In this document: positions 36,348 through 54,873 of the stretch, in pieces
How the letters are laid out: every line of letters begins with the position of its first letter
Position numbering within the stretch: the first letter of the stretch is position 1
DNA from: Burkholderiales bacterium
Lineage (GTDB): Bacteria; Pseudomonadota; Gammaproteobacteria; Burkholderiales; WYBJ01
Length of the DNA: 64,000 bases
Direction: 5' to 3'
Assembly (NCBI GenBank): GCA_020848435.1
Contig: JADLAC010000043.1
Span: forward strand, 670 to 64,669
The notes under the pieces: model-generated
What the model was told of the DNA's origin: nothing
The model's input: only the letters and a program-made list of their open reading frames with translations
Database searches by the model: none
Program-made: the position numbers and the translations under genes

Positions 36348-36377
36348 GGCGTTACCTCCGCACGAACGGCTCGTGCC

Positions 36378-38093
36378 TCAAGCGCCGGGCGCGATCCCGG
36401 GATCGGCGCCGACACCGGAAAGCGCCGGCCGGTTCAGCGCCGGCGGGCGAATGGTCTTGCTGTTGCGCAGATACGTGCTCACGACCTCCCACACCGGCTC
36501 GCCGGATGCGCCCTCGGCCACCGGCGCCCAGCTCACGATCTTGTAGCGCTTGCCGGCCTCGATCGGTTGGCCCTTCAGCGTCATGTTGCCGATGCGCTTG
36601 CCCATCGCGGCCGTCGGATCGCAGGCGTAGCGCATGCCGCCGATGCGCACCATGTCGCCGCCTTGCTGGTAATAGGGATCGGGGTTGAACAGGTTGTCGC
36701 AGATATCTTCGAGCAGCGCCTTGATGCTCTCCCCGCTCAGCTCGTTCACGGTGACGTAAGGATAGGTGATCGCGGTCGCGTTCATGACGTCTTCGGTCGT
36801 GATCGGCGTCCCGGGGAGCACGCTCGTGCCCCAACGAAAGCCGGGCGAGAACGCGATCTCGGCGCCCTTCACCGCGAGCAGCGCATCGAGAATGACCTGG
36901 TCCAGCGTGCCATTGAAATTCCCGCGCCGGTAGAGCAAGCCCTCGCTCACGGCGAGCTTTTCGCCGAGCTTCGCCGCGTACGGTGCGCGGTACTTGCGAA
37001 TGAGCGCCTCCATGTCGGCATCGGCGGGGAGCGCATTGGCGAATACCGGCAGCAGGCGGTAGTCGTAGCCGCTCACCCCGGCGCGCGTGACCTCCAGGTC
37101 CAGCACGGCGAGAAACTTGCCGTTCGAGCCCGCGTTGGTGACCAAGGTCGTGCCGCTCGCGTTCTTCACGACAACCGGCCGGGGCACCGCGTCGTGCGTG
37201 TGACCGCCGAGAATGGCGTCGATGCCGGTCACGCGCGATGCGAGCTTCAAATCGACATCCATGCCGTTGTGCGAGAGCAGGATCACGGCCCAGGCGCCTT
37301 TGGCGCGCGCCTCCGCGACCGTCTTCTGCAGCCGCTCTTCCTGGATGCCAAAGGTCCACTCGGCGACGAAGTGGCGCGGATTCGCGATCGGCGTATACGG
37401 AAACGCCTGGCCGATGATGGCGACCGGCACGCCGTTGAGCTCGCGCAGCGAGTACGCCTTGAAGACGGGATCGTCGAAATCCGCGCTGCGCACGTTCTGC
37501 GCCAGGAATTCGATGCTGCCGAGATCCTCGGCGAGCGCCTGCTTCACGCGCGCCGCGCCATAGGTGAATTCCCAATGCGCCGTCATCATGTCCACGCCGA
37601 GCGCGCGGCAAGCGGCACGCATGTCGGCGCCCTGGGTCCACAGCGCGGTCGCGGAGCCTTGCCAAGTGTCACCGCCATCGAGCAGCAGAGCGCCGGGACG
37701 CTGCGCGCGCACTTGCTTCACCAGCGTGGCGAAGTGCGCGAAGCCACCGACCTTGCCGTACCTACGCGCCGCTTCGACGAAATCGAGGTGGCTGTAGGCG
37801 TGCGCGAGCGCCGTGCCTGGCGAGATGCCGAAATGGCGCAGCAACGCCTCGCCGACGAGGTGCGGCGGTTTGCCGCGCGCCTCCTTGACCCCGATGTTGA
37901 CGTCCGGCTCGCGAAAATAGACCGGCAGGAGCTGCGCGTGGCAGTCGGTGAAATGCAGTAGCGTGACCTGGCCGCGCCGCTTCGGCAGGACGTAGAGCGC
38001 TTGCGGCTCGCTTGCCGCGCGCGTCGCCAGCGGCAATCCGGCCGCGAGCGCGGCCGCCAGGACCTCGAGAAACTCGCGCCGCGTCATCGACAT
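36378..38093 (-). CDS. soxB: Thiosulfohydrolase SoxB
   Basis: Tat signal MSMTRREFLEVLAAA, then VTLLHFTDCHAQLLP...DGGDTWQGS...LLSHNGMDVD...GGHTHD. These are the dimanganese metallophosphoesterase motifs of SoxB, and the protein is 571 aa. Confidence 0.95.
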   Translation of the reverse strand: MSMTRREFLEVLAAALAAGLPLATRAASEPQALYVLPKRRGQVTLLHFTDCHAQLLPVYFREPDVNIGVKEARGKPPHLVGEALLRHFGISPGTALAHAYSHLDFVEAARRYGKVGGFAHFATLVKQVRAQRPGALLLDGGDTWQGSATALWTQGADMRAACRALGVDMMTAHWEFTYGAARVKQALAEDLGSIEFLAQNVRSADFDDPVFKAYSLRELNGVPVAIIGQAFPYTPIANPRHFVAEWTFGIQEERLQKTVAEARAKGAWAVILLSHNGMDVDLKLASRVTGIDAILGGHTHDAVPRPVVVKNASGTTLVTNAGSNGKFLAVLDLEVTRAGVSGYDYRLLPVFANALPADADMEALIRKYRAPYAAKLGEKLAVSEGLLYRRGNFNGTLDQVILDALLAVKGAEIAFSPGFRWGTSVLPGTPITTEDVMNATAITYPYVTVNELSGESIKALLEDICDNLFNPDPYYQQGGDMVRIGGMRYACDPTAAMGKRIGNMTLKGQPIEAGKRYKIVSWAPVAEGASGEPVWEVVSTYLRNSKTIRPPALNRPALSGVGADPGIAPGA

Positions 38094-38142
38094 GCTGGCT
38101 AGCGAATGGTGTCCGCCGCGCTGAGTTTGGCCTCGCCGCGAG

Positions 38143-38778
38143 CTAGCGGTTGAGCGGCGATTGCGGGTCGATCAGGTACGCGACCAGGTGCGTGATCTGA
38201 TCGCTCGTGAGATGCTTGTTCGCGCCGAGGCGCGGCATGTTCGAGCACGGGAAGTACAGCCAACTGTTGTAGACCTTTTCGTAGACGTACTTCGCCGTCT
38301 CCGGCGAATTGCCGCGCTTGGTGCCGAATCCGGTCAGCGCGGGGCCCACGTTGCCAACGTTGATCTCGCCGCGTGCGAGGGCATGACAGTTCTGGCACAG
38401 GCCGCCATTCTCCTTGCGCTTTTCCAGCACCCCGCGAGCGATGCGATCGCCCGCCCCGTCGTGCGCCAGCGCTTCGCCGATCTTCCAGTTGCCGACCAGC
38501 TTGCCCGAGGCAGGATACTGGATCGAGGTGCGAGCGAGCTCGATGACCTCGGCGGCCTCTTCCTGCGTCAGGGCGGCATCCTCCACCTTGCTACAGAGGC
38601 GTTGCGCGCGATCCTGCTCAAGGCGCTTGAGCAGCTGCGGCGATGGGGCGGTAAAGCTCGCGCTGACGATCTTCTCGGCGCTCGCCCGGGTCTCGGCGGC
38701 ATCCGGAAAGGTCGCGCAACCGAGCGCCAGCGCGGCAGGCACGCTAGCGGCAATGCATTTCCACCATCCAGCTCGCAT
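38143..38778 (-). CDS. soxX: Monoheme cytochrome c SoxX
   Basis: There is a single CQNCH heme motif followed by ...NVGPALTGFGTKRGNSPETAKYVYEKVYNSWLYFPCSNMPRLG. It sits between soxA and soxB. Confidence 0.85.
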   Translation of the reverse strand: MRAGWWKCIAASVPAALALGCATFPDAAETRASAEKIVSASFTAPSPQLLKRLEQDRAQRLCSKVEDAALTQEEAAEVIELARTSIQYPASGKLVGNWKIGEALAHDGAGDRIARGVLEKRKENGGLCQNCHALARGEINVGNVGPALTGFGTKRGNSPETAKYVYEKVYNSWLYFPCSNMPRLGANKHLTSDQITHLVAYLIDPQSPLNR

Positions 38779-38787
38779 GTTTGCTCC

Positions 38788-39597
38788 TCAGCGCTTGAAC
38801 CCGGGCACCTCGATGACGGCGCCGTGGCCTTGCCGGTGCAGATAGGTCGTGAGCGCGATCGACACATCCGAAAGATAAGTCAGCTCCGGCAGGCGCATCT
38901 GCCAGAAACAATCGTACAGCCGCCACTGCATCGTGCGCACCACGCCGTGCGAGCCGCGATAGGCTGGCCAGCTCGACACCACCCCCTGAATCCCGGCCGG
39001 CTCGGTCATGTTGATCAGATCCTGCAGACGGATGCGTTTGCCCGATTCGCCATGGCAGGTGACGCAGGCGAAATCGGTCTGCCCCGAGCGGCGGTGGAAC
39101 AGATACTCGCCCATCTTGTACATCTCGCGCTCCTTCGCATGCGCGAGCGGCGGATCCATCTTCATGCCGTTCGAGCGCGAGGTGACGTACAAGGCGAGCG
39201 ATTCGATATCCGAGCCGTCGCTCAAGGGCGCGCTGATCGCGCTCTTGGCCAGGGCCGCTTGATCGAAGCCCTGCAAGCGCACCATGCAAGTGACCAGGCG
39301 CGATTCGAGGTCCTGCACCCGATCGGTATCGGCGAAATAGCGCGGCAGCCGGGCCGCGGCGCCCGCCAGCTTGCCGGGGCCGAGCCCGAAGTCGCACTGC
39401 TCGAGGCTCGCCTGTTTCGGGCCGCGCTTCTCGTGGTAGAGGCGTTTGCCGCGATCGAGCCACAGCTCGCCCGGGTTGTCCTCCACCAGCATCTTGCGGC
39501 CGATTTCGAGTCCCTCGCCCGGGCTTTGCGCGCTGCTCGCGGCCGAACACAGGCACGCGAACGCGAGCGCCGCCACGCGAATGGGTCGTGTGGGCAT
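38788..39597 (-). CDS. soxA: Cytochrome c SoxA (single-heme type)
   Basis: There is one CVTCH motif. The conserved distal Cys lies in WRLYDCFWQMRLP. The N-terminal heme site is absent (EQCDFG). The protein is 269 aa with a signal peptide. Confidence 0.9.
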   Translation of the reverse strand: MPTRPIRVAALAFACLCSAASSAQSPGEGLEIGRKMLVEDNPGELWLDRGKRLYHEKRGPKQASLEQCDFGLGPGKLAGAAARLPRYFADTDRVQDLESRLVTCMVRLQGFDQAALAKSAISAPLSDGSDIESLALYVTSRSNGMKMDPPLAHAKEREMYKMGEYLFHRRSGQTDFACVTCHGESGKRIRLQDLINMTEPAGIQGVVSSWPAYRGSHGVVRTMQWRLYDCFWQMRLPELTYLSDVSIALTTYLHRQGHGAVIEVPGFKR

Positions 39598-39628
39598 GCT
39601 CCTCCTCCTATGCTTGGACTGTGTACGA

Positions 39629-39949
39629 TCAGGAGGGCGGCGCGACCGTTGCCTCGTCGGAACGCTTGTCGCCCTTGTTGTCGGTCCAGGTCACCATGAT
39701 TTTGTCGCCGGCCTTCGCGCCCTTGATGCGCAGCCCGAGAAACGGATCGCGCGACACCGCCTGACTCCATTGCGCGTCGAATACCGTCTTGCCGTTGTGG
39801 CTCACCACCACGTTCTGAATGAAATGCAACGGAATGACCTGCCCCTTCGCGTCCTTGCGTTGCCCGGTTTCCATCGGATGGCGCATGAGGATGCGCACAT
39901 CGGCCACGTCGCCCTGCAGCGTGGCTCTGATTCTCATCGGCTCAGCCAT
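39629..39949 (-). CDS. soxZ: Sulfur carrier complex subunit SoxZ
   Basis: MAEPMRIRATLQGDVADVRILMRHPMETGQRKD...HFIQNVVVSHNGKTVFDAQWSQAVSRDPFL is typical SoxZ. Confidence 0.9.
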   Translation of the reverse strand: MAEPMRIRATLQGDVADVRILMRHPMETGQRKDAKGQVIPLHFIQNVVVSHNGKTVFDAQWSQAVSRDPFLGLRIKGAKAGDKIMVTWTDNKGDKRSDEATVAPPS

Positions 39950-39985
39950 TACGGCATTCTCCCTGGTCGCGTCGCAGCGAGCGTA

Positions 39986-40450
39986 TCAACCGCATCCGCC
40001 GACGGTGACCTTCACTTCCTTCACCGCGGTGTAGAACTTGCCGTCGGCCTTGACGATCGCGCGCACATTCGAGGTCTGGCCCATCTTCAGGCGCACCGAG
40101 GCGTAGCCCTCGGCGCCGCTGCCGAAATCGAACGTCGCCGCCAGCGGGAACGGATTCTTTTCCGCGATGATGGAAATGCTCTGGGTATTGGGCAGCTTGC
40201 TCGTCACCGCGATCGGCACGACCGCACCGTTTTCCGCGATGTCCGGAGCCGTGATGATGATGTCCTTCGACTCGAGCGCATCGGTCGCGCCCAGGTGCTT
40301 GACCGCTTCGGCCGCCGCCTTGGAGTCGAACCCGGCCGCGTTGCGCGCGGCCCCGGCCGGCATGACCGCGATCAGCCCGAGCGCAGCGGCCGCTCCCCAT
40401 GCCGCGGTGCCCGCGCTTGCTTCGAGAAAACGCCTGCGTGAACGCTTCAT
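39986..40450 (-). CDS. soxY: Sulfur carrier protein SoxY
   Basis: It has the Tat signal MKRSRRRFLE. The invariant C-terminal swinging arm ends ...VKVTVGGCG. Confidence 0.95.
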   Translation of the reverse strand: MKRSRRRFLEASAGTAAWGAAAALGLIAVMPAGAARNAAGFDSKAAAEAVKHLGATDALESKDIIITAPDIAENGAVVPIAVTSKLPNTQSISIIAEKNPFPLAATFDFGSGAEGYASVRLKMGQTSNVRAIVKADGKFYTAVKEVKVTVGGCG

Positions 40451-40530: not shown

Positions 40531-40557
40531 GAAAACATAATATATGAAAAGGCGAAT
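40531..40557. promoter_or_regulatory. The only AT-rich patch (gaaaacataatatatgaaaaggcgaat) in the 107-bp divergent soxY / plus-strand-array intergenic region; candidate promoter or operator
   Basis: Read directly. It contains CATA-N3-TATG dyad symmetry and a TATAAT-like stretch in an otherwise very GC-rich spacer. Confidence 0.3.
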
Positions 40558-41661
40558 ATGATTACAATGGCCGGGTTTCGGCTTGCAGCTAGACTTGGCG
40601 CCATGCACGTCGACGTGTTCCTCGAATTCGCCTCGCCGCCGGCGGCAGGCCATCGCCTGGACGAGGTTTTCGGCAACGGTCTCGCGGCTGCCCGCGCCGC
40701 CGACCGGGCGGGCTTCGGGGCCGTCTGGCTCGCCGAGCACCATTTCCTCGGCGACTATTCGAACGCGGCCGCACCCGAGATGCTGGCCGCGGCGATGGCG
40801 CGCGAGACCCGGCGGATCGGCCTGGGCTTTGCCGTGATCCCGCTGCCGCTGCACGACCCCGTGCGCGTCGCCGAGCGGCTCGCGACGCTCGATCTGCTCT
40901 CGAACGGACGCGCGTTATGGGGCGTGGGCCGTGGCGTCACAGCGGCCGAGCTGCACGCTTTTGGCGTCGAGCCCGCGCACAGCCGCGGCGAGTTCCTGCG
41001 TCGCTACGCGGAGCTGGCCGCGGTGCTGCGCAGCGGCGACGTCGTGCGCGGGGGTCGCGCGCTGAAGCTTCGCCCCGCCCCCGCGGCGCGGCTCGCGCAG
41101 GGCTGGATGGCCGCGGTGAGCCCCGAGAGCTACACCCTTGCCGCCGAGCTCGGCCTCGACGTGATGGCCGGTCCATTCAAACCCTGGCGCTGGGTGCGTG
41201 CCGATTTGGCGCGTTATCGCCTGCTGCGCCCGCAAGGGCGAACCTCGTTCACGCTCGCTTGTTATTGCGAGCGCGACCATGCCGCGGCGCGCAGGCGCGC
41301 CGGCCCAGGCATCGTCTGGGCGTTCCGCCATATCGTCGAGGTCGCGCGCCCGTTCCTGAGCACCCGCACCGGAGGTTACGAGTATTACCGCCGTCTGGGC
41401 GTCGCTTCCATGCTGATGGAGCAGCGGCTGAGCCTGCCCCTGCTGGAGCTGCTCGGACTGGCCGCGGTCGGCGATCCGGCGCACGTCGCGGCGAAGCTCG
41501 CCCGGCTCGCCGCGTCCGGCTTGGACCGGGTACAGCTCGTCATTGGCGGCGGCGACCTGGCTGCCGCGCAGCTCGAAGCCTGTATCGACCTCCTCGCCGA
41601 GCGCGTGCTGCCCGCGCTTGCCGCGGCGGGGCCTTCAGCCGCAGTCGAGGAGGCCGCTTGA
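40558..41661 (+). CDS. Luciferase-like (LLM-class) flavin-dependent oxidoreductase
   Basis: ...MHVDVFLEFASPPAAGHRLDEVFGNGLAAARAADRAGFGAVWLAEHHFLGDYSNAAAPEMLAAAMARETRRIGLGFAVIPLPLHDPVRVAERLATLDLLSNGRALWGVGRG is the canonical LLM TIM-barrel N-terminal pattern. The start is ATG 40558 (after AAAAGG) or ATG 40603. Confidence 0.8.
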   Translation: MITMAGFRLAARLGAMHVDVFLEFASPPAAGHRLDEVFGNGLAAARAADRAGFGAVWLAEHHFLGDYSNAAAPEMLAAAMARETRRIGLGFAVIPLPLHDPVRVAERLATLDLLSNGRALWGVGRGVTAAELHAFGVEPAHSRGEFLRRYAELAAVLRSGDVVRGGRALKLRPAPAARLAQGWMAAVSPESYTLAAELGLDVMAGPFKPWRWVRADLARYRLLRPQGRTSFTLACYCERDHAAARRRAGPGIVWAFRHIVEVARPFLSTRTGGYEYYRRLGVASMLMEQRLSLPLLELLGLAAVGDPAHVAAKLARLAASGLDRVQLVIGGGDLAAAQLEACIDLLAERVLPALAAAGPSAAVEEAA

Positions 41662-42518
41662 GCACGACGCTCGCCAGGATCCATCGGCGCGCGGCGCGTT
41701 ATCGCGATCCGCTCGCCCTGCTGGATTTTTCCGTGGCCGACCCCAAGCTGCCCTGGATTCCGTACGAGCTTCTGAGCCTCGCTGCCTTGCCCGAGTATGC
41801 GGCGATGTCGCAGGCCGAGCGCGTGCGGCTGAGCCGGGTCGATTTCGCCCGCCTGTGCGCAACCGGCGTGTGGCTCGAGGGCCTGCTCATGAGTCGCGCG
41901 ACCGCGCGCGGCTTCGTCGGCGCACCGATCGACGAGGCGTGCGTCATGCTGCAGGAAGTGCGGGAGGAAGCCGGACACAGCTTGATGTTCTTGCGCATGA
42001 TCGAGCGCGCCGGCATGTCCGCTGTGCCGCTGCTCGGACCGACGCGGCTTCTGACGGCGTTCGCGCGCCGGCTCGCGCCGGATCAAGCCGAGTTCTGGGC
42101 CATGGTCTATCTCGGCGAATCGGTCACCAACACTTTCGCCGCCAAGGTGCTGCGGGCAGCGGCCGCGGGCGCGGCACTGTGTCCACTGGCGCGCCAAGTG
42201 ATGGCATTGCACCATCATGACGAAGCGCATCATCTCGCCGCGGCACGCGCGCTGTTGGAAGCCCGCATTGCCGGCCTGGGGGCCCTGCGCCGGCACGCGT
42301 TTGCCGGGCTCGTGCGCGCGCTGCTGCGCCGTTTTCTCGAGGCCACGCTCTATCCCACGCCGGCGAGCTTACGCTCGCTCGGCGTCGATGACGCGGACGC
42401 CCTGGCGCGGCGGGTGCGGCAATCGCGCGAGCGCCGCGCGCTCGCCGAGGCTTGTGCCGCGCCCGCGCTCGCCTTTTTGACCCGCACCGGGCTGCTCGGC
42501 GCGACGGAGGCAGCATGA
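41658..42518 (+). CDS. AurF-like diiron oxygenase family protein (286 aa)
   Basis: A TTG start follows GAGGAGG and overlaps the LLM stop as TTGA. There are two E-x-x-H ligand motifs (VREEAGHSLMF and HHHDEAHHLAAA) in a helical protein, plus the family-typical N-terminus YRDPLALLDFS...PWIPYELLSL. This is the last 286 codons of tracked ORF 40917..42518. Confidence 0.7.
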   Translation: MSTTLARIHRRAARYRDPLALLDFSVADPKLPWIPYELLSLAALPEYAAMSQAERVRLSRVDFARLCATGVWLEGLLMSRATARGFVGAPIDEACVMLQEVREEAGHSLMFLRMIERAGMSAVPLLGPTRLLTAFARRLAPDQAEFWAMVYLGESVTNTFAAKVLRAAAAGAALCPLARQVMALHHHDEAHHLAAARALLEARIAGLGALRRHAFAGLVRALLRRFLEATLYPTPASLRSLGVDDADALARRVRQSRERRALAEACAAPALAFLTRTGLLGATEAA

Positions 42519-43576
42519 CCGAACGCAACCACGCCGGGCACGATTGGCGTGCCGCCAGCGCGCGAATCGAGCCCTTCGAGGATGCGCCATTCGATGCGGC
42601 GCTCATCGCCGAGTGCGAGCGCGAGGCGGCGGCCATAAGGCAGCGTCCGCTCAAGGTCTCCACGCCGACGTTCAAGACCTTCGACAGCGCCGACATCAAG
42701 GGCTGCTCGAAGATGAGCTTCCCCGCCTTCTCGATCACCGGCGGCGGCTGTGCGCTCATGTGCGACCACTGCCAGGCGAAGATACTCGAGCCCATGATCC
42801 CGGCGACCAGCCCGGAGATGCTCGAGCGCAAGGTGCGCGACCTCGTCCGGCTGCAGGACCTGCGCGGCTTTCTCCTCTCGGGCGGATCGAATCGCCGCAA
42901 CGAAGTGCGTTACGAGCGCTTCCTCCCGGCGATCGAGCGGCTGAAGCGGGAGTTCCCTTATCTGCGGATCGCGGTTCACAGCGCGCTGCTCGATTCGGCG
43001 CGCGCCAAGCAGCTCGAAAGCGCCGGCATCGATACGGCGATGATGGACGTGATCGGGGCCGAGGCGACCATCCGCGAGGTCTATCACCTGGAGCGCTCGG
43101 TCGAGGATTTCGAAGACACCCTCGCGGCCTTGTGCGCGACCCGCATGCAGATCGTCCCGCACATCGTCATCGGACTGCACTACGGCCGCCTGCTAGGCGA
43201 GGAGAACGCACTCGCGATAGTCGCCCGGCAGCGCGTGCACGCGCTGGTGCTGGTCGTCGTCATGCCGTTCTATGCCAAGGCCGGGACGTTCGCGACCCCC
43301 GAGCCGGCCGCGGCCGGGCGCATTTTCCTGGCCGCGCGCCGCATGCTGCCCGCGCAGGACGTGCTGCTCGGCTGCGCCCGTCCCGCGGGGATGGACAAGC
43401 GTCTGACCGATGCCTATGCGGTCATGGCCGGTCTCGACGGCATCGCCTTCCCTGCCGAAGGCGCGGTTGCGCTCGCGCGCGCGATCGGGCGGCCGATCCA
43501 CCAGGAGCACGCCTGCTGCGCGGTCAAGCTCGGCGCGCGCGCGCGCTCGGCCTTCGGCGGGGCCTGCGCGGCATGA
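42515..43576 (+). CDS. Radical SAM protein, LipS-type (sHdr-associated lipoyl synthase component; LipS1 by synteny)
   Basis: The ATG follows GGAGG and overlaps the diiron-oxygenase stop as ATGA. The CX3CX2C cluster motif is GGGCALMCDHCQAK. Confidence 0.8.
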   Translation: MTERNHAGHDWRAASARIEPFEDAPFDAALIAECEREAAAIRQRPLKVSTPTFKTFDSADIKGCSKMSFPAFSITGGGCALMCDHCQAKILEPMIPATSPEMLERKVRDLVRLQDLRGFLLSGGSNRRNEVRYERFLPAIERLKREFPYLRIAVHSALLDSARAKQLESAGIDTAMMDVIGAEATIREVYHLERSVEDFEDTLAALCATRMQIVPHIVIGLHYGRLLGEENALAIVARQRVHALVLVVVMPFYAKAGTFATPEPAAAGRIFLAARRMLPAQDVLLGCARPAGMDKRLTDAYAVMAGLDGIAFPAEGAVALARAIGRPIHQEHACCAVKLGARARSAFGGACAA

Positions 43577-44640
43577 CGCCCGCGATCGACGTGCTCGTGG
43601 TGGGGCTCGGGCCGGCGGGCAGCCGCGCTGCCTGGGCAGCCGCGCGCGCGGGCTTGAGCGTGCTGGCCATCGAGCGCAAGCCGCGCATCGGCGAACCGGT
43701 GCAGTGCGCCGAACTGGTCCCCATGGCCCTCGAGCAGGAGCTGCCCCAGCTCGGCCGCGCCACGGTACAAAGCATCGAGGCCATGCACACCTATATCGAG
43801 GACGGCGCCTGCGACGTCGCGCCGCATTTTCCCGGCGCCATGCTCGATCGAAGGCGCTTCGATGCCGCGCTCGCGGATGCGGCACGCACGGCGGGCGCGG
43901 ATTGCCGTTGCGGAATCGCTTTTCAGTCACTGGAGCAAGGCGGTGCCGTGCGCTTGAACGATGGCAGCCGCATCCATGCCGGCGTGATCATCGGCGCCGA
44001 CGGCCCGCGCTCGCGCATCGGGCGCTTGGCCGGTCGCAGCAATCGCGAGCTGTTGGAAGCGCGGCAAGTCAGCGTGCCGCTCACGCACCGGCACGCGGCC
44101 ACCGATATCTTCCTGTCATGCAATATTCCGGGCGGCTACGGCTGGTTGTTTCCGAAAGGCGATGTCGCCCACGTCGGCGCCGGCGTGGCGCCGGCGGCGC
44201 GGGCGCAGTTGCGGAAAATCGTCGAGCGGCTGCACGCCAAGCTGGCCGCGCAAGGCCGCGTGGGCACATCGGTCCTGGAGCGCACCGGCGGCGCCATCCC
44301 GGCGAGCGGAATGCTCGATCCGATCGCGCGCCTGGGGGAGACACCCGTGCTGCTCGCGGGCGATGCAGCCGGCCTCACCAACCCGGTGACCGGCGCGGGC
44401 ATCGCCGCGGCGGTGTACTCCGGCGCGCTCGCAGGCGAGGCGGCCGCCGCATGGCTAGCAGGCAAGCGTAACGCCTTGCACGACTACCGCGACGAGCTGC
44501 AATGCATCTTCGGCGCCGCGCTCGAACGCGCTCTGTCGCGCCGGCGCGCGCTCGCGCAAGCGCAGCGCAACGGCGAGGTTCTCTCGCGCGCGGCGCAGCG
44601 CCGCGGCTGGATCGCCTATCCCGAGTACTGGACGGCCTGA
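43573..44640 (+). CDS. lipT: Geranylgeranyl-reductase-family FAD-dependent oxidoreductase (LipT-like)
   Basis: MTPAIDVLVVGLGPAGSRAAWAAARAGLSVLAIERKPRIGEPVQCAE...IIGADGPRSRIG...LLAGDAAGLTNPVTGAGI. The ATG overlaps the upstream stop as ATGA. The symbol is assigned by synteny only. Confidence 0.75.
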   Translation: MTPAIDVLVVGLGPAGSRAAWAAARAGLSVLAIERKPRIGEPVQCAELVPMALEQELPQLGRATVQSIEAMHTYIEDGACDVAPHFPGAMLDRRRFDAALADAARTAGADCRCGIAFQSLEQGGAVRLNDGSRIHAGVIIGADGPRSRIGRLAGRSNRELLEARQVSVPLTHRHAATDIFLSCNIPGGYGWLFPKGDVAHVGAGVAPAARAQLRKIVERLHAKLAAQGRVGTSVLERTGGAIPASGMLDPIARLGETPVLLAGDAAGLTNPVTGAGIAAAVYSGALAGEAAAAWLAGKRNALHDYRDELQCIFGAALERALSRRRALAQAQRNGEVLSRAAQRRGWIAYPEYWTA

Positions 44641-44664
44641 TCGATAACGACGAGGAGAAGCGCC

Positions 44665-45924
44665 GTGGCGTGCGTCACCCCGGACAATGCCCTGCCCCGA
44701 GCGAACGCGGCGGGCACGCTCGACTTCAACCCCTACGGCGCGATGCAGCCGCGCGCCTCGCCGCCGGTCCCGCAGGCACTGCGCAACGGGGCGCGCGTGA
44801 AGTCGCACAACGTCGCGCCCGCCGGGGCCTACATCCCGGACATCAATATCCTCACGCCCCACATGCGCTCGCCGCAATACGTGCAGATGTCGCGCGCGGC
44901 CGCTATCACGCTCGGGGTCATGCCCGGCAAGATGCATCGCTGCGAGTGTACGCGCTGCCTCAACCTGCTGCTCACGTACCCGGAGGGATGCCGCGCGAAC
45001 TGCGCCTACTGCGGGCTCGCCCGCCATCGCGAAGCCGAGCGCGATTATGCCGATCGCAATTTCATCCGCGTCGACTGGCCGGCCTTGCCGCTCGAGCAGG
45101 TGACCGCCATGGTCGCCGGCGCGGCCAGTGGCACGCCGTTCCACCGCATGTGCATCAGCATGATCACCCACCCGCGCTCGGACGCCGACACCGTCGCGGT
45201 GCTCCGCAGCTGGACGCGCCGCGTCGATCCGCGCTCGCTCCCGGTATCGATCCTGTCGAATCCGACCACGATGAGCCGCGCCGACGTGCAGCGTTTGAAG
45301 GACCTGGGCGCCGACATCTTCACCGTCGCGCTCGACGCCTGCACTCCGGAGCTGTTCGAGCGCACCCGCGGGCGCGGCGTCCAGTCGCCACATTCGTGGC
45401 GCAAGTACTGGGAGATTCTGCACGACGCGCGCGATATCTTCGGCCGCGAGAAGTTCGGCATGCACCTCATCATCGGCATGGGCGAGAGCGAATTCGAGGC
45501 GCTCTCGGTGGTGCAGCGGCTGGTCGATCTCGGCGGCCACAGCCACATGTTCTGCTTTTTTCCTGAGCAGGGTTCGCTCATGGATCACCTGCCGGCCACG
45601 CCGCGCGACCAATGGCGCCGGGTGCAGCTCGCGCGCTACCTGATCGACTACCGCGGCGTGCGCCTCGAGCACATGCGCTTCGACGAGCTCGGCCGCGTGA
45701 GCGATTTCGGCCTGCCGCGCTCGGAGCTCGACGCCATCGTCGATGCCGGCATCGCCTTTCGCACCTCAGGTTGTCCCGGCAAGTTTCGCGACGACGTCTC
45801 GGCCTGCGACCGGCCGTACGGAGACTCGCCGCCGTCGAACATCGCCAGCTACCCGTTCCAGCCGCTCGGCCGCGACATCGTGCGCATCCGGCGCGATCTC
45901 GCCATGCGCAAGCGCGCGCGTTGA
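44665..45924 (+). CDS. Radical SAM protein, LipS-type (LipS2 by synteny), biotin-synthase-like
   Basis: The GTG start follows GAGGAG. The CX3CX2C motif is YPEGCRANCAYCGLAR. The protein is 419 aa. Confidence 0.8.
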   Translation: MACVTPDNALPRANAAGTLDFNPYGAMQPRASPPVPQALRNGARVKSHNVAPAGAYIPDINILTPHMRSPQYVQMSRAAAITLGVMPGKMHRCECTRCLNLLLTYPEGCRANCAYCGLARHREAERDYADRNFIRVDWPALPLEQVTAMVAGAASGTPFHRMCISMITHPRSDADTVAVLRSWTRRVDPRSLPVSILSNPTTMSRADVQRLKDLGADIFTVALDACTPELFERTRGRGVQSPHSWRKYWEILHDARDIFGREKFGMHLIIGMGESEFEALSVVQRLVDLGGHSHMFCFFPEQGSLMDHLPATPRDQWRRVQLARYLIDYRGVRLEHMRFDELGRVSDFGLPRSELDAIVDAGIAFRTSGCPGKFRDDVSACDRPYGDSPPSNIASYPFQPLGRDIVRIRRDLAMRKRAR

Positions 45925-45931
45925 GCTCGCC

Positions 45932-47008
45932 GTGGCGACGGCGTTCGGCGTCATCGATACCGGCCTGCGCGAGGGCCGGGCCAATATCGCCTTCGACGCC
46001 GCGCTGATCGAGGCGCGGCGCACCGGCGTGATCGGGGACACCATCCGCTTCCTCAGCTTCGCGCCGAGTGCCCTGGTCGGCAGGCACCAGGCCATCGGGC
46101 GCGAGATCAAGCTCGACTATTGCCGCGCGCACGGCATCGGGCTGGCGCGTCGCATCACCGGCGGCGGCGCGATCTACTTCGATCCGGGCCAGCTCGGCTG
46201 GGAGCTGGTGTTCGAGCGCAAGAGCCTGGGCCTCGACTCGCTGGCCGAGACCACGGCGGCGATTTGTTCGGCAGCGGCGAAAGGGCTGCAACGCCTGGGT
46301 GTCGCCGCGGCGTTTCGGCCGCGCAACGACATCGAGGTCGAGGGTCGCAAGCTCTGCGGCAGCGGCGGGTTCGTCGACGCTGACGTGGTGTTCTTCCAGG
46401 GCACGCTGCTGATCGAGTGCGACCTGGCTGCGGTGGTGCGTGCGCTCAACGTGCCGCAGCCCAAGCTCGCCAAGCGCGGTCTCGAAACGGCAGCGCAGCG
46501 CATGGTGACCTTGCACGAACTGCTCGGCGTCCGCCTGCCGAGCCCGGATCGGATCAAGGCGGCATTGCTGGCGGGCTTCAGCGAAGGGCTCGACCTCGAT
46601 GCCCAGTGGCGCCGCGTGAGCGAAACCGAGGAAGCGATCGCGCAGCGCCTGCTGGAAGAGGAGATCGGCACCGACGCTTTCGTGTTCGACATCGACGATC
46701 CGGCGGCCGACGGCGCGGCCGCGGCAGGCACCCGCACGACCCCCGGCGGCACCATCACCGCGTACCTGAAGCTCGAAACCGCGGGGACGCCGCGGGTCGG
46801 CGAAGCGCTTGTGACCGGCGACTTCTTCGCCGCCCCTCCGCGCCTCGTTCTGGACCTTGAAGCCGCGCTACGGGGAGCTCCGGTGCAGGATATCGGCGCG
46901 GCCGTGGAGCGGTTCTTTGCCGGGCGGCACGTGGAGGTGCTGTCGGTGACGCCGGCGGATTTTCGCGCGGCCTTGGAGCAAGCCGCCGACGCAGCCGGGC
47001 AGCGTTGA
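45932..47008 (+). CDS. Lipoate-protein ligase, sLpl(AB)-type (358 aa)
   Basis: The start is GTG 45932: (V)ATAFGVIDTGLREGRANIAFDAALIEARRTGVIGDTIRFLSFAPSALVGRHQAIGREIKLDYCRAHGIGLARRITGGGAIYFDPGQLGWELVF. This is the LplA/LipB/BPL catalytic-fold pattern, including RR.TGGGA.Y.D. Confidence 0.8.
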   Translation: MATAFGVIDTGLREGRANIAFDAALIEARRTGVIGDTIRFLSFAPSALVGRHQAIGREIKLDYCRAHGIGLARRITGGGAIYFDPGQLGWELVFERKSLGLDSLAETTAAICSAAAKGLQRLGVAAAFRPRNDIEVEGRKLCGSGGFVDADVVFFQGTLLIECDLAAVVRALNVPQPKLAKRGLETAAQRMVTLHELLGVRLPSPDRIKAALLAGFSEGLDLDAQWRRVSETEEAIAQRLLEEEIGTDAFVFDIDDPAADGAAAAGTRTTPGGTITAYLKLETAGTPRVGEALVTGDFFAAPPRLVLDLEAALRGAPVQDIGAAVERFFAGRHVEVLSVTPADFRAALEQAADAAGQR

Positions 47009-47014
47009 ATCGCC

Positions 47015-47740
47015 ATGGCGCCCGCACGCCCGAGCTTCTATGTTTTCCAGCCGACCGATGCCGAATACCTCGGCCTCATCGAGGACCACCTGGAAGGCCG
47101 CGGCATCGGCTTCACCTACCTGCGCCCGCACGTCGCCGGCGCGAGGCTGCCGCAGAACACGCGCGCGGCCTGCGGGCTGATACTGCTCGGCGGGGGTCCC
47201 TACGGCGCTCTGGGTCCCCCGCAACTGCCCGGGCGCGATGTCGCCGTGCGGCTTGCGCGCGATGCGTTCGAGCGCGGCAAACCGGTGATCGGCATCGGTC
47301 TCGGCGCACAGCTCCTCGCCATCGCGGCCGGGGGCAGCGCGGAATCGGCGCCTTTGCGGTTCACGGTCGGACGCGCGACCCGCACCGACGATACTGCCCT
47401 GAACGGCCTGCTGCCGCCCGACTATCCCCTGGTGGTGTACATGCGCGATCGGCCGCAGCCGCCGAGCTATGCGCGGATACTGGCGCGCGACGAGGCGGGC
47501 GAGAGCGCGCTGTTCCAGGTCGGCCCCCATGGCCTTGGCTTCAGCGGGCATCCCGGCATCAAGTCCGCCATGGTCGAGGATCTCATCATGGAATTCGACG
47601 ACGCCCCCGCGGATACGGCTACAGGGCTCGCCAAGTTGCGCGGCCTCCAGTCACAAATCGAAGATGCCCTTGTCGGCATCATGGCCGGCGTGCTCGCCAG
47701 CGCCGGGATCGCGGCGCCGGAGGTGACGCGGGACGCTTAA
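47015..47740 (+). CDS. Class I glutamine-amidotransferase-like protein lacking the nucleophile Cys (241 aa)
   Basis: KPVIGIGLGAQLLA replaces the canonical G-I-C-L-G-H-Q-L-L elbow (Cys to Gly). GFSGHPG replaces Q-F-H-P-E (Glu to Gly). The fold-typical spacing is retained. Confidence 0.7.
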   Translation: MAPARPSFYVFQPTDAEYLGLIEDHLEGRGIGFTYLRPHVAGARLPQNTRAACGLILLGGGPYGALGPPQLPGRDVAVRLARDAFERGKPVIGIGLGAQLLAIAAGGSAESAPLRFTVGRATRTDDTALNGLLPPDYPLVVYMRDRPQPPSYARILARDEAGESALFQVGPHGLGFSGHPGIKSAMVEDLIMEFDDAPADTATGLAKLRGLQSQIEDALVGIMAGVLASAGIAAPEVTRDA

Positions 47741-47800
47741 ACATATTCGATTTGCGTTATATGATCAGGCCGGGTATCGTTGCCGCGAAGGATGCCGACA

Positions 47801-48178
47801 ATGAGCAAGAAGCTGGTAATCGTGATGGTGAACACCGATACGCGTAACGGCGAGGAGCTCGGCGCGCCGCTGTTCCAGGCGAGCGTCGCGGCCGCGATGG
47901 ATTACGAGGTCGAAGTGATCTGCACGGCGACCGCCGGGCGGCTCATGAACAAGGGCGTCGCCGAAAACCTGGTGGTGAAACCGGGCTCGCCCAAGACCGT
48001 GTACGATTTCATCAAGGACGCCCACGAGGCCGGGGTGAAGTTCTACGCCTGTTCGCCCAACCTGGAGCTGTTCGGCGTGACCGAGGCGGACCTCATCCCG
48101 GAATGCGCGGGTGTCGTCGGCGGCGCCTACCTGATCGAGCAGGTGATGGAAGGCGACTGCAAGGTCCTAAGCTACTGA
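47801..48178 (+). CDS. dsrE: DsrE/DsrF-family sulfur-relay protein (125 aa)
   Basis: MSKKLVIVMVNTDTRNGEELGAPLFQASVAAAMDYEVEVICTATAG...VKFYACSPNLELFG contains the conserved active-site Cys context. It lies directly upstream of shdrC1. The subtype (DsrE3 and so on) cannot be resolved by eye. Confidence 0.8.
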   Translation: MSKKLVIVMVNTDTRNGEELGAPLFQASVAAAMDYEVEVICTATAGRLMNKGVAENLVVKPGSPKTVYDFIKDAHEAGVKFYACSPNLELFGVTEADLIPECAGVVGGAYLIEQVMEGDCKVLSY

Positions 48179-48186
48179 GCACCGCC

Positions 48187-48933
48187 ATGCACGCCACGGC
48201 CAGCCGCAAGCAGCAGCACATCGGCGATCCGCTGTCGCCGCAGCCGGTGCTCGATCGGGCGCGGCTCGAAGCGATTTTCAACGACATCCAGGCCGACGCC
48301 CGCTACGACCACGAGCTGAACGGGTGCTTGAACTGCGGCATCTGCACCGCGACCTGCCCGGCGGCGCAGTACTACGATTTCAGCCCGCGCGAAATCGTCC
48401 AGCTCCTGTGGACCGAGAACCTGGAGGGCATCTACGACGCGATGCAGGAAAAGATCTGGGCCTGCGCCCAGTGCTATACCTGCGCCGCGCGCTGCCCCTT
48501 CCGCAATTCGCCCGGCAGCCTCATCATGATCATGCGCGAGGTGGCGATCAAGCACGGGCTGCAATCGGCGAAAGACGTGCTGCGGCCGTTCTCGCGCGTG
48601 ATGCTGAAGCTGATCTCGACCGGCAACCAGCTCTCGCCCGACATGATCACCGCCGATCACTTCGCCGACTGGGGGCCGAACATCTCCAAGATCGATGCGC
48701 CGCTCAAGCTGTTGCGCCAGGCGATCCCCATGCCCACGCTCAACACCATGCAGACGGCTTGGGAGGTCAACCTCAAGACCTCGATCGAGCTCTATACCAT
48801 ATGGGAGATGACCGGCGTGCTGAAGCAGCTCGAGATCATCGACGAAAACCTGTTCGACGTGATCACCGACATCATGGACGAGAAGCGCGAGGACTACGAG
48901 GACTGGCGCGAGTCGCAAGACGGCAACGAGTGA
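48187..48933 (+). CDS. shdrC1: Heterodisulfide-reductase-like subunit C1 (two 4Fe-4S ferredoxin motifs)
   Basis: CLNCGICTATCP and CAQCYTCAARCP motifs are present. The position and size (248 aa) fit sHdrC1. Confidence 0.85.
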   Translation: MHATASRKQQHIGDPLSPQPVLDRARLEAIFNDIQADARYDHELNGCLNCGICTATCPAAQYYDFSPREIVQLLWTENLEGIYDAMQEKIWACAQCYTCAARCPFRNSPGSLIMIMREVAIKHGLQSAKDVLRPFSRVMLKLISTGNQLSPDMITADHFADWGPNISKIDAPLKLLRQAIPMPTLNTMQTAWEVNLKTSIELYTIWEMTGVLKQLEIIDENLFDVITDIMDEKREDYEDWRESQDGNE

Positions 48934-48961
48934 CGGCGCTGGACGCCGGCGGAGGCATGGC

Positions 48962-50305
48962 ATGAACGACATCGAGGGCACTCGTTTCACCGGTCACGGA
49001 CCGGAGTGGAAGGACGCGAAGCTCAGCGCGCGGGATGCGCGGGCCGCGACCGCCTGGGTGGAGGCGAAAGTCGACCGCGCGGCCTTGACCGGCAAGGATC
49101 GCGTCGAGGACGTGCGCGATCGCATGCGCGAGCTGGAGCGCGACGGCGAAATCGTCGTGCACCGCATCCGCGACGAGCACGCACCGGTCGAGGCCAAGAC
49201 GCTCTACGGCTGGACCAAGCGCATCCCCACGGCGCAGCTCTGGCATCACAAGTCCTGCGGCCAGTGCGGCAACATTCCGGGCTACCCGACCTCGCTGCTG
49301 TGGCTCATGAACCAGCTCGGCACGGTCTACCTGGACGAGACCGACCAGACCTCGTGCACCGCCTGGAACTACCACGGCTCGGGCATCGGCAACCTGGAGA
49401 GTCTCGCCTGCGTCTTCCTGCGCAACTTCCACCAGGCTTATGTCTCGGCGCGCGCGCAAGGGCTGCCCGATGGCTACTATTTCCCGCTGGTTCACTGCGG
49501 CACCTCCTTCGGCAATTACAAGGAAGTGCGCGCCTACCTGCTGCGCTCGGCGGAGCTGCGCGAGAAAGTGAAGAAGGTGCTGGCGAAGCTCGGCCGGCTG
49601 GTCGACGGCAAGCTGCTCATTCCCGAGGAGGTGGTGCATTACTCGGAGTGGCTGCACGTCATGCGCAGCCGTATCCGCGCGATCCAGACCATCGATGTCG
49701 GCAAGCTGCGTGCCGTCATCCACCCGGCATGCCACGTCTACAAGATGGTCCCCGAGGACGCGATCTACGACGATGAAGTGCTCGACGGCAACCGGGTCGC
49801 GGTGTCCACCGGCCTCGTCCAGGCGCTCGGCGCGCAGGTGATCGATTATTCAACCTGGTACGACTGCTGCGGCTTCGGCTTCCGCCACATCATCTCCGAG
49901 CGCGAATTCACCCGCTCGTTCGCCATGGACCGCAAGGTCAAGGTCGCGGTCGAGGAAGCGCACGCCGACGTGATGATCGGTCACGATACCGGTTGCATAA
50001 CCACGCTCGACAAGAACCAGTGGATCGGCAAAGCGGCCGGCAAGCACGCCGAGATCCCGATCGTCGCCGATTGCCAGTTCGCCGCGCTCGCCTGCGGGGC
50101 GCACCCGTACAAGATCGCGCAGCTGCACTGGCACGCCTCGCCGGTCGAGAAACTGCTCGCGCAGATGGGCATCGACTGGCAGCGGGCCAAGGCCGAATTC
50201 GAGAGCTATCTCGAAGCAGTGCGCAATGGCCGTGGCGAGCATCTGTACGACCCGCGCCGCGCCATTACCTCCGGGCCGGGCGCGCGCAAACCCGTGATGG
50301 CGTAA
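48962..50305 (+). CDS. shdrB1: Heterodisulfide-reductase-like subunit B1 (CCG domain)
   Basis: The ATG follows GGAGG. Motifs: HHKSCGQCGNIPGY, TSCTAWNYHGSG, HPACHVYK and YDCCGFGFRH (CCG motif). The protein is 447 aa. Confidence 0.85.
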   Translation: MNDIEGTRFTGHGPEWKDAKLSARDARAATAWVEAKVDRAALTGKDRVEDVRDRMRELERDGEIVVHRIRDEHAPVEAKTLYGWTKRIPTAQLWHHKSCGQCGNIPGYPTSLLWLMNQLGTVYLDETDQTSCTAWNYHGSGIGNLESLACVFLRNFHQAYVSARAQGLPDGYYFPLVHCGTSFGNYKEVRAYLLRSAELREKVKKVLAKLGRLVDGKLLIPEEVVHYSEWLHVMRSRIRAIQTIDVGKLRAVIHPACHVYKMVPEDAIYDDEVLDGNRVAVSTGLVQALGAQVIDYSTWYDCCGFGFRHIISEREFTRSFAMDRKVKVAVEEAHADVMIGHDTGCITTLDKNQWIGKAAGKHAEIPIVADCQFAALACGAHPYKIAQLHWHASPVEKLLAQMGIDWQRAKAEFESYLEAVRNGRGEHLYDPRRAITSGPGARKPVMA

Positions 50306-50310
50306 CGACC

Positions 50311-51354
50311 ATGACCATACTCGTAGTGGGTGCCGGCCCGGCCGGGTTGGCGGCGGCGTATGCCCTGGCCCGGGTCGGCCAGCCGGTAACGCTGGTGGAC
50401 AAGGCGCAGCGCCTGGGCGGCGCGCCGATTCTTTCCGGCTATGCGAAGCTGATTCCCTCGGGCGAATGGGCGCGCGATGCGATCGGCGGCATGGTGCGCC
50501 GGGTCGAAGAGGCGGCCCTCGTGAGCGTGGAAACGAACACCACGGTGAGTGCATTCGACGGAGAGGCGGGCAAGTTCACCGCCCGTTTGAGCAACGGCAA
50601 GAGCGTGCCATGCGCTGCCGCCATCCTGTGCACGGGCTTCACCCACTTCGATTCGGTGAACAAGCCCGAATGGGGCTTCGGCACCTATCCCGATGTCGTG
50701 ACCACGACCCAGGTGGAGCAGATGATCTCCTCTGGCCAGGGCGTACGCTGCCCCTCGGACGGCCGCAAGCCCGAGCGCGTCGCCATCCTGCTGTGCGTCG
50801 GCTCGCGCGACCGGCAGATCGGCCGCGAATGGTGCTCGAAGGTATGCTGCACCGTGTCGGCGAATCTCGCCATGGAGATTCGCGAAGAGCTGCCTCAGTG
50901 CCATGTGTACATCTATTACATGGACATCCGCACCTTCGGCTTGAACGAGGACCTGTACTACTGGCGCAGCCAGGAACAGTTCAAGGTCAAGTACATCAAG
51001 GCACGGATCGCCGAGGTCACTTCCGACGGCCAGCGGCTGGTCGTGAAGGGCGAGGATACGCTGGTTAAGCGCCCCATCACCATACCGTTCGACCTGGTCG
51101 TGCAAGCGATCGGCATGGATCCCAATGTCGACAATCGCGCGCTGGCCGCGGTGTTCGGAGTCGGTCTGCAGCACCACGGCTACGTCGCGCGCGCCAGCGC
51201 GTATGCCGGCATGGCGCTGTCGACACGTCCCGGGGTGTTCGTGGCGGGTGCGGCTACCGGACCGGAGACGATCGACGACTCGATCGCCCAAGGCGAAGCA
51301 GCGGCGATGGCCGCCCTCGGCGTGGTGCGCGCCAGCGCCGCGCTGGCAGCGTGA
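50311..51354 (+). CDS. shdrA: Heterodisulfide-reductase-like flavoprotein subunit A (short sHdrA type, 347 aa)
   Basis: MTILVVGAGPAGLAAAYALARVG is the FAD motif. ILLCVGSRDRQIGREWCSKVCCTVS is the HdrA 4Fe-4S Cys pattern. GVFVAGAATGPETIDDSIAQG lies at the C-terminus. Confidence 0.9.
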   Translation: MTILVVGAGPAGLAAAYALARVGQPVTLVDKAQRLGGAPILSGYAKLIPSGEWARDAIGGMVRRVEEAALVSVETNTTVSAFDGEAGKFTARLSNGKSVPCAAAILCTGFTHFDSVNKPEWGFGTYPDVVTTTQVEQMISSGQGVRCPSDGRKPERVAILLCVGSRDRQIGREWCSKVCCTVSANLAMEIREELPQCHVYIYYMDIRTFGLNEDLYYWRSQEQFKVKYIKARIAEVTSDGQRLVVKGEDTLVKRPITIPFDLVVQAIGMDPNVDNRALAAVFGVGLQHHGYVARASAYAGMALSTRPGVFVAGAATGPETIDDSIAQGEAAAMAALGVVRASAALAA

Positions 51355-51358
51355 TCGC

Positions 51359-52210
51359 ATGCGAGCAGCAAGCGTCGCGGCGCCGGCCTCGGTTGCGCAC
51401 CCCACGCTGCACCTGAGCGGTCCCAAGCTGCGCACTGCGCTCGAGCGCCTGCTCGCCGGCACCGAGGCCGCCGGCGGCATCGAGCGCTGGGTCGGCGGAC
51501 TGAAGCTCAAGGCGGCGGTGTTCGAACGCTCGCTCCACAACTCGCAGCTCGGCGCGCTCGACGAGCATACCTTCCTCGGCGTGTGCGCGCTGATGCCCAC
51601 GGTGCGCCGGCGCATCGCTGCGTGGCTTTCGCGCACGGGCTTCGATGCCGCGCGCAGGCTCTTGCGAGAGCTGCTCGACGAAGCGCGCGACGCAGCGAGC
51701 ACGGATGATCGCATTGCCACCTTCTGCGCCGGGTTTCCGGCCGATCGCGAGCATCGCTACGCGCGCGATCTCGCCGCCGAGCTGCTGCACTGGAGCGCGC
51801 TCGAACGCCATCCTCTCATGACGCGCTGGGTGTGGGACCAGGCGGCGGATAGCGGCGTCCTGCGCGAGATCTGGCACGACGCTGCGGACCCCGCGCTGAA
51901 CCGCATCGCCGATGGCCGCGACACCTTCCTCGTCCTGCGCGCAGAGCTCGCACAATACCTGACCGACAACGGCTTCTTTCGCGACGTACCGCTGTACGTG
52001 GACCTGCTGTGCGCGCAAGTCTATGCGAGCTACATCGCGGAACAAGGCGGGAGCTACTTGCGTGCCGACTTTTCATCCGAGCACGATCCCATGCAGTACG
52101 TCCGCCGCATGTTGGGGCTCGATGGCATCGATATCGACAGCGGCCTGACGCGCTTGAAGCTCGCCGACGGCCGCGCGTATGTGTTGCACCCCGCGGCGCA
52201 CCAGACCTGA
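51359..52210 (+). CDS. shdrH: Conserved hypothetical protein of sHdr clusters (sHdrH position), 283 aa
   Basis: It has no recognisable motifs. The assignment rests on its invariant position between shdrA and shdrC2 and a 4-nt gap to shdrA. Confidence 0.65.
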   Translation: MRAASVAAPASVAHPTLHLSGPKLRTALERLLAGTEAAGGIERWVGGLKLKAAVFERSLHNSQLGALDEHTFLGVCALMPTVRRRIAAWLSRTGFDAARRLLRELLDEARDAASTDDRIATFCAGFPADREHRYARDLAAELLHWSALERHPLMTRWVWDQAADSGVLREIWHDAADPALNRIADGRDTFLVLRAELAQYLTDNGFFRDVPLYVDLLCAQVYASYIAEQGGSYLRADFSSEHDPMQYVRRMLGLDGIDIDSGLTRLKLADGRAYVLHPAAHQT

Positions 52211-52225
52211 TGCGCGACCGAGCCC

Positions 52226-52993: not shown

Positions 52994-53012
52994 CGCCGTT
53001 GACGAGGCAGCA

Positions 53013-54358: not shown

Positions 54359-54376
54359 GAACAGCGGAGACGAGCG

Positions 54377-54870: not shown

Positions 54871-54873
54871 ACC

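Follow-up and report, generated by a model that had tools for sequence, protein, structure and literature searches.

In Hyphomicrobium denitrificans, the genes lipS1-lipT-lipS2-slpl(AB)-lipX (Hden_0683-0687) are followed by dsrE3C and the shdr genes (PMC10332631, PMC10451225), and the lipoate-assembly pathway that they encode was established by deletion of slpl(AB) and by helper-plasmid experiments (Tanabe 2023; PMC10332631, PMC10451225). The genes lipS1-slpl(AB)-lipT-lipS2 of Thioalkalivibrio sp. K90mix (TK90_0641-0644) lipoylate LbpA in Escherichia coli (PMC10332631), and the typical archaeal order is lipS2-lplA-lplB-lipS1 (PMC10332631). LipS1 and LipS2, both radical S-adenosylmethionine (SAM) proteins, act as a pair in which sulfur is introduced at C8 first (PMC9585515). 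We analyzed a 64-kb stretch of DNA, referred to here as the window, from the metagenome-assembled genome (MAG) of an uncultured, high-GC Burkholderiales bacterium, in which a preliminary description made without database searches had placed a dedicated lipoate-assembly module at 42515-47008. We conclude with high confidence that the four genes at this position constitute the lipS1-lipT-lipS2-slpl(AB) lipoate-assembly pathway, and that they lie within, and are probably co-transcribed with, a shdr-lbpA sulfur-oxidation island. The present analysis established the integrity of the genes, their family assignments and synteny, the conservation of ligand residues and the signature of the lipoate-binding protein LbpA. 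For comparison, a genome scan found 216 relatives; the locus counts given below are drawn from the best 80 of these unless another denominator is stated.

Comparison with described lip loci

The preliminary description had called the gene order identical to that of known modules, which holds for H. denitrificans and fails for both Thioalkalivibrio sp. K90mix and the typical archaeal arrangement. As in H. denitrificans, the window carries all five lip genes in the same order with dsrE-shdrC1B1AHC2B2 directly after them, and the two loci also share a GTG start for the ligase gene, tight junctions, and an island that contains an ArsR-type repressor gene encoding two cysteines as well as sox genes. 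They differ in the position of the repressor gene, which is directly upstream of lipS1 in H. denitrificans (shdrR, with a 177-bp regulatory region) whereas it follows lbpA in the window. The spacer between lipX and dsrE is about 50 nt in the window and 173 bp in H. denitrificans. In addition, genes for a luciferase-like monooxygenase (LLM) and an AurF-like oxygenase precede lipS1 in the window with overlapping stop and start codons, and H. denitrificans lacks both. This comparison is one of gene order and features rather than of direct alignment to Hden proteins, and the H. denitrificans island has lbpA2. Between the window and related Hyphomicrobiaceae MAGs, LipS1 identity is 65-70%.

Thioalkalivibrio sp. 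K90mix has the same four families, but its ligase gene is second in the cluster; it also has lipY, which encodes a putative transporter of fatty acids and was not detected in the window. Thermococcus kodakarensis resembles the window in using a two-protein synthase, LipS1 (TK2109) and LipS2 (TK2248), together with LplAB; both synthase proteins of T. kodakarensis have the CX3CX2C motif as well as an auxiliary [4Fe-4S] cluster. Its lip genes are unlinked, whereas those of the window are clustered. The proteins from the window also differ from those of T. kodakarensis in carrying N-terminal extensions of about 65-70 residues and extra cysteines (C64 in LipS1; C93xC95xxC98 and C297 in LipS2). The LipB/LipA and LplA systems of E. 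coli would share with the window the lipoyl-lysine product, the LplA ligase fold and sulfur insertion by radical SAM chemistry; E. coli uses a single LipA with a Cx4Cx5C/RSSY site, whereas the window encodes two BioB-like proteins instead.

The order lipS1-lipT-lipS2-ligase was found in 43 of the 61 informative related loci, and dsrE-shdr genes follow the lip genes in 38 of the 51 with enough downstream sequence. Dozens of alpha- and betaproteobacterial loci keep the synteny with the ligase gene and lbpA. The four-gene module is a further instance of the published system and by itself brings no new biology.

The lip genes and their products

Region 42515-47008 of the forward strand contains four intact, tightly packed genes, all with third-position GC of 0.83-0.89, which marks the frames as coding: lipS1 (42515..43576, 353 aa), lipT (43573..44640, 355 aa), lipS2 (44665..45924, 419 aa) and slpl(AB) (45932..47008, 358 aa). 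The pair of ATGA overlaps expected at the first two junctions was present only between lipS1 and lipT (43573-43576); lipT ends with TGA at 44638-44640 and is separated from the GTG start of lipS2 at 44665 by a 24-nt spacer containing GAGGAG. The GTG start proposed for the ligase gene was found exactly 7 nt (GCTCGCC) past the TGA of lipS2. A second ATGA overlap does exist at 42515-42518, where it joins the AurF-like gene to lipS1, and the unit therefore reaches upstream of the start given in the preliminary description. Throughout, the junctions are either overlaps or spacers of 6, 7 or 24 nt. Alignments with homologs from the 80 related loci back the chosen starts, beginning within residues 1-11 for LipS1 and residues 1-5 for the ligase, and LipS2 alignments begin at residue 1 in 51 of 66 homologs.

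All four family assignments of the preliminary description, namely two radical SAM proteins flanking a geranylgeranyl reductase (GGR)-family flavoprotein and followed by an LplA-fold ligase, hold up in Pfam and NCBIfam searches, with domain matches well above the level of chance. Pfam Radical_SAM matched the products of both the first and the third gene. By best NCBIfam model, the first radical SAM protein is LipS1 and the second is LipS2, and the two CX3CX2C motifs that had been read in them, GCALMCDHC and GCRANCAYC, are present as described. LipS1 has NF053742 as its best family (185.9 bits, E 1.1e-54, model positions 5-268 of 268), with the next family at 24.8 bits. Its motif GCALMCDHC spans residues 78-86 (nt 42746-42772), and the three cysteines C79, C83 and C86 are invariant in 81 of 81 sequences. 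The same 81 sequences also all contain C287-x46-C334-C335. In T. kodakarensis LipS1, mutagenesis identified C230, C276, C277 and probably H159 as ligands of the auxiliary cluster (PMC9585515), and the spacing C230-x45-C276C277 corresponds to the pattern seen here; the match was made by pattern and spacing rather than by direct alignment to TK2109. Two histidines, H215 and H221, show at least 95% conservation and lie at a distance corresponding to H159 of the archaeal protein.

LipS2 is encoded from a GTG start after GAGGAG and has NF053743 as its best family (178.1 bits, E 2.7e-52; next family 38.4 bits). The motif GCRANCAYC occupies residues 108-116 (nt 44986-45012) and provides C109, C113 and C116. 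Three further cysteines, C163, C370 and C381, are present in each of 64 sequences and are found at distances from the radical SAM motif comparable to those of C85, C276 and C279 in T. kodakarensis LipS2, with the C-terminal pair arranged as CX10C and not as CX2C. Conservation extends to C95 and C98 (64/64), C297 (63/64) and C93 (61/64).

As a separate observation, the proteobacterial LipS2 proteins (residues 3, 93-98, 297 and 370-381 here) share an N-terminal extension of about 70 residues, a CxCxxC sequence just before the radical SAM motif, Cys297 and the CX10C pair. Together, these features may point to an additional or differently ligated metal site.

The product of lipT is a flavin adenine dinucleotide (FAD)-dependent oxidoreductase of the GGR family, with Pfam FAD_binding_3 and GGR_cat matches and a dinucleotide-binding motif, GLGPAGS, at residues 11-17 near its N terminus. 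LipT has been proposed as the electron donor for LipS1 and LipS2 (PMC10332631). The protein passes the generic model TIGR02032 (192.1 bits, cut-off 158.8), as a genuine prenyl or quinone reductase with no part in lipoate assembly would also be expected to do, and a gene for a UbiA prenyltransferase is located nearby at 55257-56291 on the reverse strand. Such a reading could also draw on the 8 of 61 related loci that have no LipT match between lipS1 and lipS2, and on the fact that the electron-donor role is only a proposal in the literature. However, the protein scores far under the specific equivalogs (BchP, 102 bits against a cut-off of 343; MenJ, 57 against 700), its start codon overlaps the lipS1 stop codon, and in 43 of 61 loci lipT keeps its place between the two synthase genes. 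Moreover, bacterial lipT is found almost exclusively (91%) in genomes with lipS1 and lipS2 (PMC10332631). We therefore consider a prenyl or quinone reductase very unlikely and retain the designation LipT.

The fourth gene encodes a lipoate/octanoate:protein ligase to which an LplB-like C-terminal domain is fused. The catalytic domain matched Pfam LplA-B_cat (PF21948) with 146.2 bits, and residues 288-351 matched the LplB model NF053749 (E 1.1e-9, 38.3 bits), under its cut-off of 65 bits. All 52 sequences compared share the active-site residue Lys140, which lies within GRKLCGSG. Relatives in the PDB are the LplA structures 1vqz, 2ars and 3r07, which include the bipartite Thermoplasma enzyme; with the equivalog for E. 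coli-type LplA the protein scored 138 bits, against a cut-off of 280.

The ligase gene is followed by lipX (47015..47740, forward strand), a name taken from PMC10332631, which encodes a protein resembling class-I glutamine amidotransferases (Pfam GATase, 28.3 bits). Residues 93-99 read GIGLGAQ in place of the G-x-C-x-G-x-Q of class-I amidotransferases, and H-P-G stands where the catalytic triad has H-P-E. Because Gly replaces the nucleophilic Cys in 51 of 51 homologs, LipX does not appear to be a classical amidotransferase, and it is probably non-catalytic in that sense.

Several points weigh against the assignment of the four genes as a LbpA-directed lipoate-assembly pathway. Both radical SAM proteins score under the curated NCBIfam equivalog cut-offs, which are 230 bits for LipS1 (NF053742) and 270 bits for LipS2 (NF053743), and LipS2 has a CX10C spacing of its C-terminal cysteines where the archaeal enzyme has CX2C. 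The identification of LipS1, LipS2 and sLpl(AB) as such relies on family models and residue patterns rather than on direct alignment to experimentally characterized sequences, and is to that extent a prediction. Finally, the specificity of the ligase for LbpA over GcvH or E2 proteins is predicted by analogy with published systems (PMC6067878, PMC10332631) and from the co-located lbpA.

The shortfall against the cut-offs looks clade-wide rather than specific to this locus, because six LipS1 and LipS2 proteins from three related loci all scored 185-190 bits. For LipS1, two Hyphomicrobiaceae MAGs and a Microbaculum isolate gave 185-187 bits with NF053742, and for LipS2 the three relatives tested gave 186-190 bits with NF053743. 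The idea that the locus is aberrant for missing the cut-offs was rejected, since the relatives score alike. H. denitrificans had no named member among the LipS1 clusters. PDB sequence searches with LipS1 and LipS2 returned no relatives at E≤1 other than spurious lectin matches, so no solved structure could be used for their assignment.

The low scores do leave room for a different view of the two proteins, namely that they are BioB-, HydE- or PylB-type or other sulfur-insertion or maturase enzymes and that their position next to a ligase gene is coincidental. Historical annotations listed LipS proteins as biotin synthases (PMC9585515), and NCBI names an identical protein only 'radical SAM protein', probably because the LipS scores fall under the curated cut-offs. 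The family searches point the other way: LipS2 gave 20.6 bits with BioB (TIGR00433, cut-off 225) against 178.1 bits with its own family, HydE and PylB gave no match at E<0.01, and LipS1 matched none of BioB, HydE and PylB at E<0.01. The LipS1-type C...CC ligand pattern is invariant, and the synteny with ligase and lbpA genes across Alpha- and Betaproteobacteria argues against coincidence. BioB, HydE and PylB identities were rejected on the NCBIfam scores, and we regard this possibility as extremely unlikely. LipA was rejected as well, since the N-terminal Cx4Cx5C and C-terminal RSSY motifs are absent from both proteins and neither matched LipA at E<0.01.

LbpA, the sulfur-oxidation island and the proposed pathway

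The lip genes are followed on the same strand by genes for a dsrE3-like sulfurtransferase, shdrC1, B1, A, H, C2 and B2, and a hypothetical protein of 140 residues (47792..54358; Pfam and NCBIfam matches to DsrE, Fer4/HdrC, CCG/HdrB and HdrA-like families), and then by lbpA (54377..54817), 7.4 kb downstream of the four-gene module. The LbpA protein matches Pfam GCV_H (PF01597) with 108 bits and is the presumed substrate of the module. Described LbpA proteins combine a GcvH fold and a lipoyl-lysine with N- and C-terminal cysteines that GcvH lacks (PMC6067878). The protein encoded in the window displays this signature, with Lys71 (in ESGKW), Cys7 and Cys145 conserved in seven of seven sequences, and it scores below both GcvH NCBIfam equivalog cut-offs.

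These findings allow a pathway to be proposed, in which each catalytic step, like the substrate specificity and the regulation, is extrapolated from characterized homologs. sLpl(AB) would activate free octanoate (or lipoate) with ATP and transfer the acyl group to Lys71 of apo-LbpA. LipS2, with SAM and an auxiliary [4Fe-4S] cluster, would then attach sulfur at C8, after which LipS1, likewise with SAM and an auxiliary [4Fe-4S] cluster, would add sulfur at C6 to give lipoyl-LbpA. LipT, as a FAD/NAD(P)H oxidoreductase, probably provides the electrons for reductive cleavage of SAM. Holo-LbpA and the sHdr complex would finally oxidize sulfane sulfur, delivered by the periplasmic Sox system, to sulfite.

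The module could instead be a general lipoylation system that serves GcvH and the E2 subunits of 2-oxoacid dehydrogenases besides or instead of LbpA. Only 42% of bacteria containing LipS1 and LipS2 have sHdr (PMC10332631), and no lipA, lipB or lplA was detected among the scanned genes of the 64-kb window. Since the window covers a small fraction of the genome, the absence of lipA and lipB from it says little. The location of the lip genes, on the other hand, directly between sox and shdr-lbpA and about 50 nt before dsrE, together with the linkage to dsrE-shdr in 38 of 51 loci, favors a dedicated role. We therefore judge a general lipoylation system unlikely and prefer the assignment of the module to LbpA.

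The sox genes, soxY-soxZ-soxA-soxX-soxB-soxT (35220..40450, reverse strand; soxT is YeeE-like), are divergent from the lip operon and were assigned from Pfam matches to SoxY, SoxZ, SoxA-TsdA_cyt-c, cytochrome c, 5'-nucleotidase C-terminal/Metallophos and Sulf_transp. Downstream of lbpA, the gene at 54874..55302 (forward strand) encodes an ArsR/BigR-type repressor like sHdrR and SoxR, with a Pfam HTH_5 match, BigR as the best NCBIfam family (92.9 bits) and two cysteines, Cys34 and Cys99. By analogy with the characterized proteins (PMC12423496, PMC10451225), it would act as the repressor of the island.

The 140-residue protein encoded between shdrB2 and lbpA (53936-54358, forward strand) has no family match. 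Its gene overlaps shdrB2 by ATGA, and the related loci whose sequence reaches this point encode proteins 47-59% identical to it.

Promoter and terminator consensus scans of 40300-56400 gave counts no higher than those of shuffled controls, and Rfam, tRNA and tandem-repeat scans returned nothing relevant within 40-56 kb. Two spacers on the forward strand, those preceding the LLM gene (40533-40562) and dsrE (47739-47765), are the only ones to contain the sequence AAACATA-N(13-16)-ATATGAT, which has promoter-like hexamers, and the copy in the LLM spacer is conserved in one related locus (L001). These sites may be candidate paired promoters or repressor sites; because the pattern was derived from the same two sites, any statistic on it is circular and it serves as a lead only. 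MAFFT produced no convincing alignment of the LLM and dsrE spacers, and the only inverted repeat that a search detected between soxY and the LLM gene was a weak palindrome covering the start of soxY.

Oxygenase genes upstream of lipS1

The overlap at the lipS1 start codon continues into two further genes, and the lip operon appears to start at 40603 with the LLM gene and not at 42515. The LLM gene (40603..41661, forward strand) encodes a luciferase-like monooxygenase of the flavin mononucleotide type (Pfam Bac_luciferase, 149 bits), and homolog alignments begin at the ATG at 40603. Its best solved relatives are the alkanal monooxygenase alpha chains 8cbb and 8k74 and LuxA (1brl). A TTGA overlap at 41658-41661 connects it to the gene for an AurF-like diiron oxygenase (41658..42518, forward strand; Pfam AurF, 119.7 bits), whose TTG start follows GAGGAGG and coincides with the M of its homologs.

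In the AurF-like protein, E74, E104, H107, E154, H185, E189 and H192 do not vary across 58 sequences and correspond to diiron-ligand positions. The protein has the features that define AurF and CmlI, a ferritin-like four-helix bundle and a seven-residue diiron site made up of E, ExxH, E and HxxxExxH. Its AlphaFold model has a predicted local distance difference test (pLDDT) score of 94.5, and the best folds in the PDB are AurF and CmlI (template modeling scores of 0.61-0.67 at 17-20% identity), followed by R2lox. An arylamine as the substrate is doubtful in the context of a lip operon. The protein belongs to a small, discrete subfamily of 121 database clusters, whose boundary is sharp; its near-full-length members are at least 48% identical, after which identity jumps to 36-37%.

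The LLM and AurF-like genes precede lipS1 in 18 of the 71 related loci with enough upstream sequence. All five independently sampled members of the AurF-like subfamily were located in the arrangement LLM-AurF-HDAC-lipS1-lipT-lipS2-slpl-lipX with 4-nt overlaps, whereas a 36%-identical outlier was not beside lipS1. The third gene in this arrangement encodes an amidohydrolase of the HDAC family (PF00850) and is absent from both the window and H. denitrificans. In about 57 of 86 related loci such a gene is present upstream of lipS1 on the same strand, usually adjacent to it (for example at 10870-11991 in L081 and 8799-9863 in L015). The HDAC-family protein could be a lysine de-acylase tied to LbpA maturation.

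The searchable literature on the sHdr/LbpA system yielded no mention of the LLM, AurF-like or HDAC families, and membership of the LLM and AurF-like genes in the lip operon may be a new extension of the pathway. Tentatively, and at somewhat less than even chances, we propose that the LLM, AurF-like and HDAC-like proteins make up an O2-dependent accessory arm of the sLpl(AB)-LipS1/LipS2 pathway that H. denitrificans and Thioalkalivibrio lack. Such an arm could generate the free C8 acid used by the ligase, a suggestion made for the LLM because its nearest solved relatives are alkanal monooxygenases, or it could act on the lysine of LbpA or its cofactor by de-acylation or repair.

A role of the LLM and AurF-like proteins in organosulfur oxidation was also considered and was judged less likely than one in lipoate assembly. 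The two genes remain associated with lipS1 in L009 and L029, two loci without adjacent shdr genes, and the AurF-like gene was beside lipS1 in every sampled context of its subfamily, with the outlier found elsewhere; both observations speak against an organosulfur function.

Other genes of the window and implications

At 8401-11480, about 3 kb of sequence with a reduced GC content (0.62) comes after a tRNA-Lys(CTT) gene; this stretch contains only HTH/Xre/MqsA-antitoxin-like and unassignable open reading frames and may be a small integrated remnant. Seven genes for TctC/Bug-family periplasmic receptors, one of them a fragment, are spread over the 64 kb (7266-8411, 11481-12677, 12750-13124, 16589-17983, 19197-20504, 27890-28882 and 34149-35219). 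Many such receptor genes are typical of Burkholderiales genomes, which fits the taxonomy of the MAG. Positions 20284-27872 are occupied by a gene for a double CoA-transferase family III protein, divergent from a gene for a fusion of biotin carboxylase, biotinyl and carboxyltransferase domains of about 1,100-1,230 residues, with a gene for a FAD-dependent oxidoreductase next to it. The cluster belongs to organic-acid metabolism and has no relation to the lip module.

For the LipS families, the present results mean that the current NCBIfam cut-offs for LipS1 and LipS2 miss the sHdr-linked proteobacterial proteins tested here. For the pathway itself, the source of the free octanoate used by the ligase is not addressed in the literature that we found, and the LLM, AurF-like and HDAC-like genes are therefore concrete, testable candidates.

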